From NCBI RefSeq assembly GCF_044647545.1, contig NZ_CP172818.1: DNA of 64,000 bases. One strand, written 5' to 3'. This stretch comes from Escherichia coli. Lineage in GTDB: Bacteria > Pseudomonadota > Gammaproteobacteria > Enterobacterales > Enterobacteriaceae. Position 1 is the stretch's first letter. Each line of letters begins with the position of its first letter. The notes beneath the pieces were generated by a model. It was not told the origin of the DNA and did not search any database. It saw nothing but the letters and a program-made list of their open reading frames with translations. Position numbers and translations under genes: made by a program. This document shows positions 14,116-63,670 of this stretch, piece after piece.

Positions 14116-14148
14116 TAGGCCGGATCAGGCGTTACGCCGCACCCGGCA
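14116..14148. repeat. REP-like element downstream of rpoD
   Basis: taggccggatcaggcgttacgccgcacccggca palindromic unit. Confidence 0.45.
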
Positions 14149-14164
14149 CTAGTCCCTCTGCACA

Positions 14165-14192
14165 AACGCCACCTTTTCGGTGGCGTTTTTTA
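14165..14192 (+). terminator. rho-independent terminator after rpoD (possibly bidirectional with mug)
   Basis: Hairpin acgccacc-ttttc-ggtggcgt followed by T-run. Confidence 0.6.
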
Positions 14193-14820: not shown

Positions 14821-14896
14821 GGCCCCTTAGCTCAGTGGTTAGAGCAGGCGACTCATAATCGCTTGGTCGCTGGTTCAAGTCCAGCAGGGGCCACCA
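14821..14896 (+). tRNA. ileX: tRNA-Ile2 (anticodon CAU, lysidine-modified)
   Basis: 76-nt ggccccttagctcagtggttagagcaggcgactCATaatcgc...ggggccacca with encoded CCA; anticodon at 14854-14856. Confidence 0.9.
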
Positions 14897-14949: not shown

Positions 14950-15714
14950 TTACTTTGCGTGCCAGTAAGCCGCTGCACGTACCCGCTGTGGGTCATACTG
15001 TTCCGCTTCAAAGCGGCGGCTTAAATTCTTAACGACTTTGCCTTCGCCGGTTATCCAGATGAAGTAATCATCGGCAGGGATTTGCATCTGCGCCAGACGC
15101 GCATCTACCGCCTGCTCATCATGCGCCAGCCATTCGATATTAAAACCATCAAGGTGCGCGAGATAATCCTGGCAGGCGTGATCCCGCACGCTAACCAGTG
15201 CGCTAACTTGCGGTTTAACAGCAAGTTTGCTCAACGTTTCCAGGCGGCGGCGCAGTGCGGGCATTCCGGATTCATCGCAGACATACAGCTGATACGCGTA
15301 ATCCTCTGGCACCACCAGCGAACCGCGCGGACCTGCCACCGTGAGTTTATCGCCCGGTTGCGCCTGCATTGCCCAGCTGCTGGCGACGCCACCGTCGTGA
15401 ATAAAGAAATCAATCGCCAGTTCATGGCGTAGTTCGTCATACAGCGGCGTATAGTCACGCGACGGTGGGCGTGGTCCTTCCGGCCAGACGATGCCCTCTT
15501 CCGTTACCGTTGGCGGCACAAAGTGAGCATCAGATTGAGGAAAGAAGAGTTTGCTGTGATCGTCAAAGCCGCGCGATGTAAAACCGTCCAGCGCCTCGCC
15601 GCCAAGGACAATGCGCTGAAAACCGGCGCTAATACGCTCAGCGCGTAGCACAGTCAATTCACGGAAGCGCAGATCATTGCGAACGCGCTGCGGGTAGCGG
15701 GGGGAGTTATTCAT
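14950..15714 (-). CDS. yqjH: NADPH-dependent ferric-siderophore reductase
   Basis: ORF 254 aa; ViuB/FAD-binding siderophore-interacting fold; Fur box upstream. Confidence 0.85.
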   Translation of the reverse strand: MNNSPRYPQRVRNDLRFRELTVLRAERISAGFQRIVLGGEALDGFTSRGFDDHSKLFFPQSDAHFVPPTVTEEGIVWPEGPRPPSRDYTPLYDELRHELAIDFFIHDGGVASSWAMQAQPGDKLTVAGPRGSLVVPEDYAYQLYVCDESGMPALRRRLETLSKLAVKPQVSALVSVRDHACQDYLAHLDGFNIEWLAHDEQAVDARLAQMQIPADDYFIWITGEGKVVKNLSRRFEAEQYDPQRVRAAAYWHAK

Positions 15715-15737
15715 TGTTATCGCCTTCGTGATAGTAA

Positions 15738-15752
15738 TCAGATATATCTAAA
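15738..15752. promoter_or_regulatory. palindromic candidate operator (core agatatatct) near yqjH promoter
   Basis: Perfect 10-bp palindrome agatatatct at 15740-15749; second copy at 15959-15968. Confidence 0.4.
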
Positions 15753-15761
15753 TAAATTTCG

Positions 15762-15790
15762 CAAATGATAATGATTGTTAATCATGATAA
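15762..15790. promoter_or_regulatory. Fur box in yqjH promoter region
   Basis: aatgataatgattgttaatcatgataaat resembles Fur consensus GATAATGATAATCATTATC. Confidence 0.55.
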
Positions 15791-15853
15791 ATGCAAGCGA
15801 TTTGTAGAACTGATATATCTGAAGTATGAGAAGACATTCAGCGTCGTAGCAAG

Positions 15854-15890
15854 GCTGCCGGATGCGGCGTGAACGAATTATCCGGCCTGG
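15854..15890. repeat. REP-like element in yqjH-yqjI intergenic region
   Basis: gctgccggatgcggcgtgaacgaattatccggcctgg. Confidence 0.45.
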
Positions 15891-15956
15891 ATGTGAGGTG
15901 TATTCACGTTTAAAAATCATTTTTATACTTGCAAAAGCGCTCATATCAGATATAAA

Positions 15957-15970
15957 TTAGATATATCTAA
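15957..15970. promoter_or_regulatory. 14-bp perfect palindrome, candidate YqjI operator upstream of yqjI
   Basis: ttagatatatctaa is its own reverse complement; lies about 20 bp upstream of the yqjI start. Confidence 0.4.
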
Positions 15971-15990
15971 TTAAGCAAAAGGAGGCTGAT

Positions 15991-16614
15991 ATGAGCCATC
16001 ATCACGAAGGGTGTTGTAAACATGAAGGCCAGCCACGCCATGAAGGCTGCTGCAAAGGTGAGAAGTCAGAACATGAGCACTGCGGACACGGTCACCAGCA
16101 TGAACACGGTCAATGCTGCGGTGGTCGCCACGGTCGCGGCGGCGGTCGTCGGCAGCGTTTCTTTGGTCACGGTGAATTGCGTCTGGTGATTCTGGATATT
16201 CTCTCGCGCGATGACAGCCACGGTTACGAATTGATTAAAGCGATTGAGAATCTAACCCAGGGGAATTACACCCCAAGCCCGGGCGTCATCTACCCAACGC
16301 TGGATTTTCTGCAGGAGCAGTCGCTGATTACCATCCGCGAAGAGGAAGGTGGTAAGAAGCAGATTGCACTGACCGAACAGGGCGCGCAGTGGCTGGAAGA
16401 AAACCGCGAACAGGTGGAGATGATCGAAGAACGCATCAAAGCGCGTTGCGTTGGTGCTGCACTCCGCCAGAACCCGCAAATGAAGCGGGCGCTGGATAAT
16501 TTTAAAGCGGTGCTGGATTTACGCGTCAACCAGAGCGATATCACTGATGCACAAATAAAAAAGATCATTGCGGTGATCGACCGCGCCGCTTTTGATATTA
16601 CCCAACTGGATTAA
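15991..16614 (+). CDS. yqjI: PadR-family metal-responsive transcriptional repressor with His/Cys-rich N-terminal tail
   Basis: ORF 207 aa; N-terminus MSHHHEGCCKHEGQPRHEGCCKGEKSEHEHCGHGHQHEH... Confidence 0.85.
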   Translation: MSHHHEGCCKHEGQPRHEGCCKGEKSEHEHCGHGHQHEHGQCCGGRHGRGGGRRQRFFGHGELRLVILDILSRDDSHGYELIKAIENLTQGNYTPSPGVIYPTLDFLQEQSLITIREEEGGKKQIALTEQGAQWLEENREQVEMIEERIKARCVGAALRQNPQMKRALDNFKAVLDLRVNQSDITDAQIKKIIAVIDRAAFDITQLD

Positions 16615-16700
16615 CGGATGCGGCGTACCCCTACCCCCCCCGTAGGCCTGATAAGATGCGCCAGCATCGCATCAGGCATTGTGCTCCAACCGCCGGATCC
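16615..16700. repeat. REP elements between yqjI and aer
   Basis: cggatgcggcgtacccc...gcctgataagatgcgccagcatcgcatcaggc...ccggatccggcata. Confidence 0.5.
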
Positions 16701-16710
16701 GGCATACCGA

Positions 16711-60389: not shown

Positions 60390-61724
60390 TTATTTCTGCA
60401 ATTCCATACGTTTAATGTCGCCGACTACGAAGAGGTAGCAGACCATCGCCATCAGCGCTGAACATCCCACGAAAACCAGTGCTGCATTGAAGGAGTGCAA
60501 TTCACTTACCAGGTAGCCAATCACCAGTGGAGTGACAATGGAGGCAACATTGCCAAAGACGTTAAAGACGCCGCCGCAGAGACCAACAATCTCTTTCGGC
60601 GCGGTGTCAGAAATCACTGGCCAGCCCAGCGCACCAAATCCTTTGCCAAAGAAAGCCAGCGCCATCAGCATGACCACCAGCGTGGTGTTGTTGGTGTAGT
60701 TACATAAGATAATGGTGGAAGCCAGCAACATTCCCAGCACAATCGGTAGCTTACGTGCCAGGGTCAGGGACAAACCGCGTTTGATCAGATAATCCGAGAA
60801 GACACCTCCCAGTACGCCGCCCGCAAAGCCACACAGTGCCGGAATCGAGGCGACCAGACCCACTTTCAGAATCGACATGCCTTTTTCCTGAACCAGATAA
60901 ATTGGGAACCAGGTGAGGAAGAACCAGGTGATGGTGTTGATAAAATATTGTCCGAAAAATACGCCCAGCATCATGCGGTTAGAGAGCAATTGCTTGATGT
61001 AATGCAGTTTGGGACCGCTTGCTGCCGCACTGCCCGGCTTTTTGTGGTCCATATCGACCACCGCGCCATTTTCTGAGATAAACTTCAGCTCTTCCGCAGA
61101 CATACGTGGGTGATCTGTCGGGTTATGAATCAACTTGATCCACAGCGCCGTCAGCACAAAACCAATCACCCCCATAACGGTGAAGACGTGCTCCCAGCCC
61201 CAGGCGAAAGTCAGCCAGCCAAGCAGCGGCGAAAAGAGCGCCAGCGAGAAATATTGCGCCGAGTTAAAGATGGCGGAGGCAGTACCACGTTCTTTCGTTG
61301 GGAACCAGGCGGCGACAATACGGGCGTTCGCCGGAAATGATGGCGCTTCCGAGAACCCCAGCATAAAGCGCATAAAGAACATGGAGATCCCTGCCCAGGC
61401 CAGCGGGAACATATCAACAAAGCCTTGCAGGAAGGTGAACAGCGACCAGAAAAAGAGGCTGTAGGTGTAAACTTTTTTCGAGCCAAACTTATCAAGCAGC
61501 CAGCCGCCGGGAATTTGCATCAGCAGGTAGGCCCAGCCAAAAGCGGAGAAGATGTAACCCATCGAAACCGCACTTAACTGCAACTCTTTTGCCACTTCGG
61601 TACCAGCAATAGACAGCGTTGCACGATCGGCGTAGTTAACGGCGGTAACAATAAAAATAATCAGTAATATTAAATAGCGGGTATGCACGCCTTTCTTTTT
61701 TACGTCAACGGTGTCCAGAATCAT
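60390..61724 (-). CDS. garP: galactarate/glucarate/glycerate transporter (MFS)
   Basis: ORF 444 aa, 12-TM MFS. Confidence 0.9.
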   Translation of the reverse strand: MILDTVDVKKKGVHTRYLILLIIFIVTAVNYADRATLSIAGTEVAKELQLSAVSMGYIFSAFGWAYLLMQIPGGWLLDKFGSKKVYTYSLFFWSLFTFLQGFVDMFPLAWAGISMFFMRFMLGFSEAPSFPANARIVAAWFPTKERGTASAIFNSAQYFSLALFSPLLGWLTFAWGWEHVFTVMGVIGFVLTALWIKLIHNPTDHPRMSAEELKFISENGAVVDMDHKKPGSAAASGPKLHYIKQLLSNRMMLGVFFGQYFINTITWFFLTWFPIYLVQEKGMSILKVGLVASIPALCGFAGGVLGGVFSDYLIKRGLSLTLARKLPIVLGMLLASTIILCNYTNNTTLVVMLMALAFFGKGFGALGWPVISDTAPKEIVGLCGGVFNVFGNVASIVTPLVIGYLVSELHSFNAALVFVGCSALMAMVCYLFVVGDIKRMELQK

Positions 61725-62098
61725 TTTATTTACCTCGGGTACTTATGCTGATTTTTATTATTATGGGGAAGGTGTTATTTATGAGTTTTATTTATGCCGT
61801 TACGGCAATGAACTCGGGAATTAGTATAAGCAGCGCGAGAATAATAATCATTGTGCAAATGCTAATTTAATTAATACTATTTAAATATTATTTTGAGCAT
61901 ATGCACATAAGGTTGCGCGCTAAAGCACAGATTTGCGCTTTACCTTGCCGGACGGCACTGCAATCCCTGAAATGATTGACATTGATCACATTTCTGCGTT
62001 TAAACTCCTGACATTCTTATTTCACCCAATGAAGTCATTTATTTTTAAATGAGACCAGGTCCTCATTTTAATAACCCCTGGCTGGAGAATATTGCACA

Positions 62099-63670
62099 AT
62101 GGCCAACATCGAAATCAGACAAGAAACGCCAACTGCGTTTTATATAAAAGTTCACGACACAGATAATGTGGCAATTATTGTTAATGATAATGGCCTGAAA
62201 GCAGGAACGCGTTTTCCGGATGGGCTGGAATTAATTGAACATATTCCCCATGGGCATAAAGTCGCATTGCTGGACATTCCAGCTAATGGTGAAATTATTC
62301 GTTATGGCGAAGTGATTGGTTACGCCGTGCGCGCAATCCCACGCGGAAGCTGGATCGACGAATCAATGGTTGTACTACCGGAAGCGCCGCCGTTACACAC
62401 GCTGCCACTGGCAACCAAAGTCCCGGAACCCTTACCGCCGCTGGAAGGATACACCTTTGAGGGCTATCGCAATGCCGATGGCAGCGTGGGCACTAAAAAC
62501 CTGCTCGGCATCACCACCAGCGTCCACTGTGTAGCAGGCGTGGTGGACTATGTAGTAAAAATCATTGAACGCGATCTGCTACCGAAATACCCGAACGTCG
62601 ATGGCGTGGTGGGGCTGAATCATTTGTACGGCTGTGGCGTGGCGATTAACGCACCGGCGGCAGTTGTGCCTATTCGTACCATCCACAATATTTCGCTGAA
62701 CCCTAACTTTGGCGGCGAAGTAATGGTGATTGGTCTGGGTTGTGAAAAGTTGCAGCCTGAGCGCCTGCTGACTGGAACGGATGATGTGCAAGCTATTCCA
62801 GTAGAAAGCGCCAGCATTGTCAGTTTGCAGGATGAAAAGCATGTCGGCTTTCAGTCCATGGTCGAGGATATTTTGCAGGTCGCCGAACGCCATTTGCACA
62901 AACTGAATCGACGGCAGCGAGAAACCTGTCCGGCTTCAGAACTGGTTGTCGGCATGCAGTGCGGTGGCAGCGATGCGTTTTCTGGCGTAACGGCAAACCC
63001 GGCGGTTGGGTATGCGTCTGATCTACTGGTGCGCTGCGGCGCAACGGTGATGTTTTCAGAAGTCACGGAAGTGCGTGACGCGATCCATCTGCTGACACCA
63101 CGCGCAGTGAACGAAGAGGTCGGCAAACGGCTGCTGGAGGAGATGGAGTGGTACGATAACTATCTCAATATGGGAAAAACCGACCGCAGCGCCAACCCTT
63201 CGCCGGGCAACAAGAAAGGCGGTCTGGCAAATGTGGTGGAGAAGGCACTCGGCTCCATTGCGAAATCGGGTAAAAGTGCGATTGTTGAAGTGCTGTCGCC
63301 TGGTCAACGCCCGACTAAACGCGGATTAATTTACGCCGCGACGCCAGCCAGCGATTTTGTCTGTGGCACGCAACAGGTGGCTTCGGGTATCACCGTGCAA
63401 GTGTTTACGACCGGTCGTGGTACGCCGTACGGCCTGATGGCGGTACCCGTCATTAAAATGGCAACCCGCACCGAGCTGGCGAACCGCTGGTTTGATTTAA
63501 TGGATATTAATGCGGGCACCATCGCTACCGGCGAAGAAACTATTGAAGAGGTGGGCTGGAAGTTGTTCCACTTTATTCTCGACGTCGCCAGCGGGAAGAA
63601 GAAAACCTTCTCAGATCAATGGGGACTGCATAACCAGCTGGCGGTGTTTAACCCAGCACCGGTGACCTGA
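62099..63670 (+). CDS. garD: galactarate dehydratase
   Basis: ORF 523 aa; SAF plus altronate/galactarate dehydratase domains, homologous to uxaA in this window. Confidence 0.9.

Follow-up and report, generated by a model that had tools for sequence, protein, structure and literature searches.

The region of interest is the 276-bp spacer at 15715–15990 of a 64-kb stretch of Escherichia coli DNA, referred to here as the window and analysed over its full length of 64,000 nucleotides. This spacer separates the divergently transcribed genes nfeF/yqjH (14950–15714, minus strand) and nfeR/yqjI (15991–16614, plus strand). The former, identified from its open reading frame, its Pfam domains and the RefSeq annotation of identical DNA, encodes a 254-residue NADPH-dependent ferric-siderophore reductase with the siderophore-interacting FAD_binding_9 and SIP domains, and the latter, identified from its open reading frame and Pfam domain, encodes a 207-residue repressor of the PadR family. 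The gene order rpoD-mug-tRNA-Ile-nfeF/nfeR-aer, with the tRNA at 14821–14893, is found both in the RefSeq annotation of identical DNA from strain 7/2 and in K-12, and the amino acid identity to the K-12 proteins is 99.5% for YqjI (NfeR) and 98.0% for YqjH. The spacer itself has a G+C content of 35.5%, is present in 5422 of 5426 complete E. coli genomes, and is 100% identical to that of strain 7/2 and 86.4% identical to that of K-12.

The PadR winged helix of YqjI (PF03551) spans residues 67–136 (16189–16398) and scores 56.6 bits against a cut-off of 27, and PadR proteins of solved structure, Rv3488 among them, match it weakly in sequence (best E value in the PDB, 6e-9). YqjI shares with Bacillus subtilis PadR, Lactococcus lactis LmrR, Vibrio cholerae AphA and Mycobacterium tuberculosis Rv3488 the winged helix, a predicted autoregulation and a palindromic operator, but has a metal ion for its ligand instead of a phenolic acid or drug, and it adds a 56-residue His/Cys-rich N-terminal extension that lies outside the matched structures. 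This extension (residues 1–56, 15991–16158) begins with MSHHHEGCCKHEGQPRHEGCCKGEKSEHEHCGHGHQHEH and contains 12 His and 7 Cys residues, the hexapeptide HEGCCK occurring at residues 5–10 and again at residues 17–22. A first-pass annotation of this DNA had described an HEGCCK-repeat metal-binding tail; the His/Cys-rich repeats are indeed present, but they form an N-terminal extension and not a C-terminal tail. Operators of the PadR/LmrR type have the form ATGT-N8-ACAT, from which the YqjI operator, centred on GATATATC, differs.

Operators, promoters and Fur box of the spacer

The 10-bp palindrome AGATATATCT occurs exactly at 15740–15749 and 15959–15968, and these are its only two copies in the 64-kb window. 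The second copy is contained in a perfect 14-bp palindrome, TTAGATATATCTAA, at 15957–15970, such that direct reading bears out both of the palindromes reported earlier at the two ends of the spacer. When up to one mismatch to AGATATATCT is allowed, four matches are found in the window against 0.72 expected, and three of the four lie inside the 276-bp spacer. In 20,000 first-order Markov simulations of the spacer’s own AT-rich composition, some 10-bp palindrome was present in 45% of runs, while the same 10-bp palindrome arose twice in 0.1% of runs, and three GATATATC cores were obtained in none (0/20,000).

On the yqjH side, the candidate YqjI operator TCAGATATATCTAA (15738–15751) holds the perfect 10-bp palindrome and, within it, the invariant 8-bp core GATATATC at 15741–15748, and would lie on the predicted yqjH transcription start or a short way downstream of it. 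On the yqjI side, the candidate operator (15948–15970) is built from two tandem 11-bp units, AGATATAAATT at 15948–15958 and AGATATATCTA at 15959–15969, with its core at 15960–15967; it overlaps both the –10 hexamer and the start site, predicted to lie near 15963, and the palindrome at this position is conserved. The two cores are 219 bp apart here, compared to 230 bp in K-12. We also considered an 11-nt perfect inverted repeat, GCTCATATCAG / CTGATATGAGC (15939–15949 / 15986–15996), which brackets the yqjI operator, ribosome-binding site and start codon, as a structure that might sequester the ribosome-binding site. We rejected it, since its first arm lies upstream of the predicted transcription start and the pairing is not kept in the E. 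albertii or M15 alleles, nor in other genera; the repeat is probably incidental.

A strict scan of 15650–16050 for σ70 promoters and terminators returned nothing, indicating that the promoters are sub-consensus, and they were placed by hand and with the help of a gSELEX study of the RpoD holoenzyme (PMC3946193). The yqjI promoter as read from the sequence (15929–15956, plus strand) has a –35 element TTGCAA (15929–15934), a 16-bp spacer and a –10 element TATAAA (15951–15956), and TTGCAA-16-TATAAA is also what is listed for yqjI in that study (PMC3946193). All genera compared conserve the TTGC of this –35 element and its distance from the operator, and the ribosome-binding site AGGAGG (15980–15985, plus strand) follows at 5 nt before the ATG at 15991. 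Upstream of the –35 element lies the A/T-rich element TTTAAAAATCATTTTTA (15909–15925, plus strand), in which AAAATCA is partly conserved across genera and which shows 78% complementarity to the sequence around the Fur box; this element may be UP-like, or else a second, weak site resembling a Fur box.

The yqjH promoter can be placed in two ways. Placement A, read from the sequence (15768–15796, minus strand), combines a –35 element TTGCAT (15796→15791), a 17-bp spacer and a –10 element CATTAT (15773→15768). It makes use of GCAAG at 15793–15797 (CTTGC on the yqjH strand), which is invariant in all 30 of the aligned spacers described below, and it would put the start near 15761 and the yqjH-side palindrome at approximately +12 to +21. 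Placement B (15752–15781, minus strand) combines a –35 element TTAACA (15781→15776), an 18-bp spacer and a –10 element ATTTAT (15757→15752), and the K-12 yqjH promoter is listed as TTAACA-18-TTTTAT in the RpoD-holoenzyme study (PMC3946193). Its –10 region is poorly conserved between genera, and it would put the yqjH start near 15745, inside the palindrome. Under either placement, the Fur box would cover part of the core promoter, and the site for YqjI would fall at or just after the start.

The Fur box (15766–15790) consists of two overlapping 7-1-7 motifs. The first, TGATAATGATTGTTA (15766–15780), agrees with the 7-1-7 Fur motif TGATAATnATTATCA at 13 of 15 positions, which is the best match in the 64-kb window, and the second, at 15776–15790, agrees at 12 of 15. 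Against the classical 19-mer GATAATGATAATCATTATC the box scores 14/19, and a search of the 64-kb window for this 19-mer at three or fewer mismatches gave no match. The Fur box is probably real, even though it is no textbook copy: the stretch ATGATAATGATT at 15765–15776 is invariant across genera, which argues that the box is functional. In published listings of the Fur regulon, yqjH is included. A literature search for Fur ChIP-exo work covering yqjH found no paper. The Fur-like box that had been proposed at about 15762–15790 is present, but it lies 16 bp from the yqjH-side palindrome and not midway between the two. The arrangement resembles that of other Fur-repressed iron-acquisition promoters in that AT-rich 7-1-7 inverted repeats would overlap the core promoter of an iron-assimilation gene, and is unlike them in that the box matches the classical consensus at only 14 of 19 positions and the promoter is subject to another, metal-specific repressor as well. 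Elsewhere in the window, GAGAATAATAATCATTGTG at 61837–61855, in the AT-rich spacer between the divergent open reading frames 60390–61724 (minus strand) and 62099–63670 (plus strand), matches the 19-bp Fur consensus at 15 of 19 positions, which is better than the yqjH box.

Conservation of the operators across genera

A single scan of species-representative genomes gave 32 loci encoding YqjI relatives, and yqjH lies divergently upstream in all of those with enough upstream DNA. For the phylogenetic footprint, 30 spacers from Escherichia, Citrobacter, Enterobacter, Lelliottia, Superficieibacter and Raoultella were aligned. These spacers are between 130 and 287 bp long and are mostly unalignable, with the GATATATC core being invariant at both ends and at set distances from the start codons. 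On the yqjH side, the core lies 22–35 bp from the yqjH start codon across the 30 spacers; on the yqjI side, the larger element GATAT(A)-N-TTAGATATATC (15949–15967 here) is invariant across the six genera, 24–31 bp before the yqjI ATG, and in Enterobacter the operator on this side comprises three phased units. Otherwise the only invariant positions are ATGATAATGATT in the Fur box and the –35 elements of the two promoters, i.e., GCAAG and the TTGC of the yqjI promoter. The same elements are also invariant in 10 Escherichia alleles, despite a central block that is only 64% identical. Taken on its own and leaving the literature aside, this footprint argues strongly for a function of the palindromes and the Fur box. 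The new detail that it provides is that the YqjI operator can be pinned to an invariant GATATATC core and that, on the yqjI side, an 11-bp unit is arranged in tandem.

The distance between the two cores varies considerably, being 219, 230 and 217 bp in Escherichia, 183–185, 172–175 and 166 bp in Citrobacter, Raoultella and others, and 96–97 bp in Enterobacter. We found no common helical phase among these operator spacings (96–230 bp) across the genera, and strict phase-dependent looping is therefore unsupported by the comparative data. Steps of 10–11 bp within lineages (219 vs 230 bp, and 174 vs 184 bp) are suggestive, but are too few events to count.

The N-terminus of YqjI, in turn, varies strongly between lineages. 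In Escherichia and Citrobacter it comprises 33–84 residues with one to four HEGCC repeats (84 residues in C. sedlakii), in Raoultella and Enterobacter sp. kpr-6 it is His-rich with no Cys, and in Enterobacter and Lelliottia it is a stub of 13–18 residues, MRHEHEGGGRRPR. All of these lineages keep both GATATATC operators (loci L006–L034), and the DNA-binding logic therefore predates the nickel-sensing module and is the more general of the two. Moreover, as Enterobacter and Lelliottia do not have the His/Cys-rich region, the nickel response cannot be family-wide, and the variation predicts that Enterobacter NfeR would not be nickel-responsive in the same way.

The variable central block

Differences from K-12 are concentrated around the middle of the spacer. 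The hypervariable central block (15817–15908) is 64% identical to K-12 and carries an 11-bp indel, whereas its flanks (15715–15816 and 15909–15990) are 97% and 96% identical and the neighbouring genes 96.7–99%; this contrast would make the block a hot spot of recombination or divergence. The yqjH–yqjI locus of K-12 is otherwise the same in position and order: both palindromes and the Fur box are unchanged, and the terminal operators, Fur box, yqjI promoter and ribosome-binding site are identical or one to two bases off, with the spacer measuring 287 bp there and 276 bp here. E. coli spacers fall into length classes of 276/277 bp and 287 bp. A 68-residue open reading frame at 15738–15944 (minus strand) was rejected as coding, as it sits in the block with the 11-bp indel and 64% allele identity.

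Within this block is a single REP (palindromic unit) at 15857–15888 (plus strand), GCCGGATGCGGCGTGAACGAATTATCCGGCCT, which matches the REP consensus at 30 of 32 positions, confirming the earlier reading of a REP element between the palindromes. Four matches to the REP consensus are found in the window, with 0 expected, and a sub-threshold match to the Rfam family naRNA4, which is REP-derived, covers 15830–15887. The stem GCCGGAT...ATCCGGC has a calculated stability of –7 kcal/mol as DNA, with a z-score of only –0.82 relative to shuffled sequences. None of the spacers compared from outside Escherichia contains the REP, which points to a late insertion, and the element thus reads as a late, Escherichia-specific passenger. 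In the 2014 study by Wang et al., mutation of the REP reportedly left control by YqjI unaffected, and the comparative data agree with this; shortening deletions reportedly disrupt control.

The REP has itself served as an insertion target. In strain IAI39, the IS3-family element IS1397 is inserted in the REP loop, with the junction GCCGGATGCGGCGTGA / TGAACTGC (L040, 1654–1721; equivalent to approximately 15857–15875 here). IS1397 prefers palindromic units as insertion targets, and the IAI39 case fits this preference. The present unit shares with other REP/BIME units of E. coli its consensus match, extragenic position, multicopy nature and, in IAI39, its use by IS1397, but it differs from them in being single, in lying between two divergent promoters and in probably being untranscribed, rather than forming part of a 3′ or intercistronic transcript. 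Further REP/BIME-like elements are seen at 14118–14192, in the rpoD/mug gap, and at 16645–16704, in the yqjI/aer gap, with sub-threshold naRNA4 scores of 31 and 47 bits, respectively. We note that, at the IAI39 junction GCCGGATGCGGCGTGA / TGAACTGCACC, IS1397 parts the yqjH and yqjI operators by approximately 1.4 kb, and this insertion offers a natural test of the “communication” between operators.

At the edge of the central block lies a third copy of the core. The near-palindrome TGATATATCT (15811–15820) matches at 9 of 10 positions and contains a full GATATATC core at 15812–15819. Its distance to the core on the yqjH side is 71 bp, and that to the core on the yqjI side is 148 bp, lengthening to 159 bp in the long allele. 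The distances of 148 and 159 bp are near whole helical turns, although these are two data points only. In K-12, the corresponding sequence is GATATGTC, which differs from GATATATC by one A→G change at 15817. In exact 30-nt haplotype searches against 5426 E. coli genomes, we counted the three commonest haplotypes: the type found in the window (1629 genomes) and a second type (795 genomes) both have an intact core, and the K-12 type, with GATATGTC, is found in 2429 genomes. At least 45% of the E. coli genomes thus carry an intact central core, while K-12 and about 45% carry a mutated one. The core is also intact in E. albertii and another Escherichia species. The other genera have at most a half-site, TGATA(T), at this place, 63–66 bp from the yqjH-side core, and several do not have even that; such reduction or loss indicates that the central site is not constrained like the terminal operators.

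It is conceivable, but in our estimation unlikely, that the central GATATATC core acts as a functional third YqjI operator that differs between E. coli strains. If it did, natural E. coli lineages would differ in the repression loop and in how strongly, or at what nickel threshold, yqjH is controlled, and experiments with K-12 would have captured a two-site form of a three-site system.

The proposed switch and alternative readings

By their titles, the papers of Wang, Wu and Outten (2011) and Wang et al. (2014) (J. Bacteriol.) deal with control by Fur and YqjI and with communication between binding sites, and a published summary of the Wang papers names NfeR as the repressor of nfeF and excess nickel as the condition that lifts the repression. 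Published work further reports that deletion of nfeR in Klebsiella derepresses nfeF 85-fold, and that nfeR is upregulated under nickel stress. Taking these reports together with the gene identities and the cross-genus footprint, the control of yqjH by Fur and by nickel- and iron-responsive YqjI, which the first-pass annotation had presented as known, is well supported. We consider it very probable that the region is the already characterised nfeF–nfeR metal-responsive switch of E. coli, operating here as published for K-12. The feature is thus already known and of little weight as a finding, and the annotation was right to call it a sanity check rather than a novelty, experiments of 2011 and 2014 having already dissected the locus; what it did achieve was to recognise the operators, the Fur box, the REP and the metal-binding sequence from raw DNA.

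In the mechanism that we propose, YqjI/NfeR would bind, through its PadR-type winged helix, to the GATATATC-centred palindromes that lie on or just after both divergent start sites, and this binding would block transcription of yqjH, which encodes the ferric-siderophore reductase, as well as of yqjI itself. The Fur box over the yqjH core promoter would be bound independently by Fe(II)-Fur, such that low iron would also be needed for yqjH to be expressed. Nickel bound to the His/Cys-rich N-terminal extension would lower the affinity of YqjI for DNA, and both genes would then be derepressed. The two operators, 219 bp apart, would cooperate, most likely through a loop bridged by YqjI. The present data show the sequence features, that they are statistically non-random, which genes they belong to and how deeply precisely these elements are conserved. 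Repression, the nickel response and control by Fur are here taken from the literature, while the promoter and start positions, as well as the looping, are what we infer.

A different ligand for the spacer is suggested by published gSELEX data, in which the nfeF/nfeR spacer is the only peak obtained with His-tagged PepA and the fourth strongest peak (intensity 74) obtained with His-tagged FlhDC (PMC8249747, PMC9962212). On the strength of these data, the palindromes, or the whole spacer, might be bound mainly by PepA or FlhDC, with YqjI not being the principal ligand. However, the FlhDC box assigned to the spacer peak sits inside the yqjI coding sequence, the FlhDC peak exceeds those at genuine flagellar promoters (54 at fliE/fliF and 13 at flgA/flgB), and the PepA experiment missed the known target carAB. 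Both data sets made use of His-tag/Ni capture, and we speculate that co-purified His-rich YqjI, carrying its own operator DNA, could explain the peaks; a literature search for YqjI as a contaminant in immobilized metal affinity chromatography found nothing. As the palindrome accompanies yqjI in every genus examined, and the 85-fold derepression in Klebsiella follows from loss of nfeR itself, we regard binding mainly by PepA or FlhDC as very improbable. That this spacer recurs among the strongest peaks of unrelated gSELEX experiments with His-tagged proteins is, in itself, a reason for caution.

Still less probable, in our view, is that the palindrome acts at the level of RNA, in the 5′ leaders of yqjH and yqjI, for instance as a shared target of a small RNA or RNA-binding protein. 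Under placement A the yqjH-side palindrome would be transcribed (approximately +12 to +21), the yqjI-side copy starts at approximately +1, and both lie 24–35 nt from the start codons, all of which would be compatible with such a role. Against it, a loop-less 10-nt perfect palindrome forms no useful hairpin, and conservation is symmetric over the full inverted repeat, with the upstream unit at yqjI overlapping the –10 hexamer, which is not transcribed. In addition, the only Rfam family found in the region is the weak REP-derived match, and the published mechanism is transcriptional repression, as in the switch proposed above. Finally, that the palindromes are functionless chance products of an AT-rich promoter region might be argued from the low G+C content of the spacer and from the ease with which some 10-bp palindrome arises in the simulations, but this reading is effectively refuted by how rarely the same 10-mer recurs in those simulations, by the failure of any run to yield three GATATATC cores, and by the invariance of the core at both ends in six genera whose flanking sequences are unalignable.
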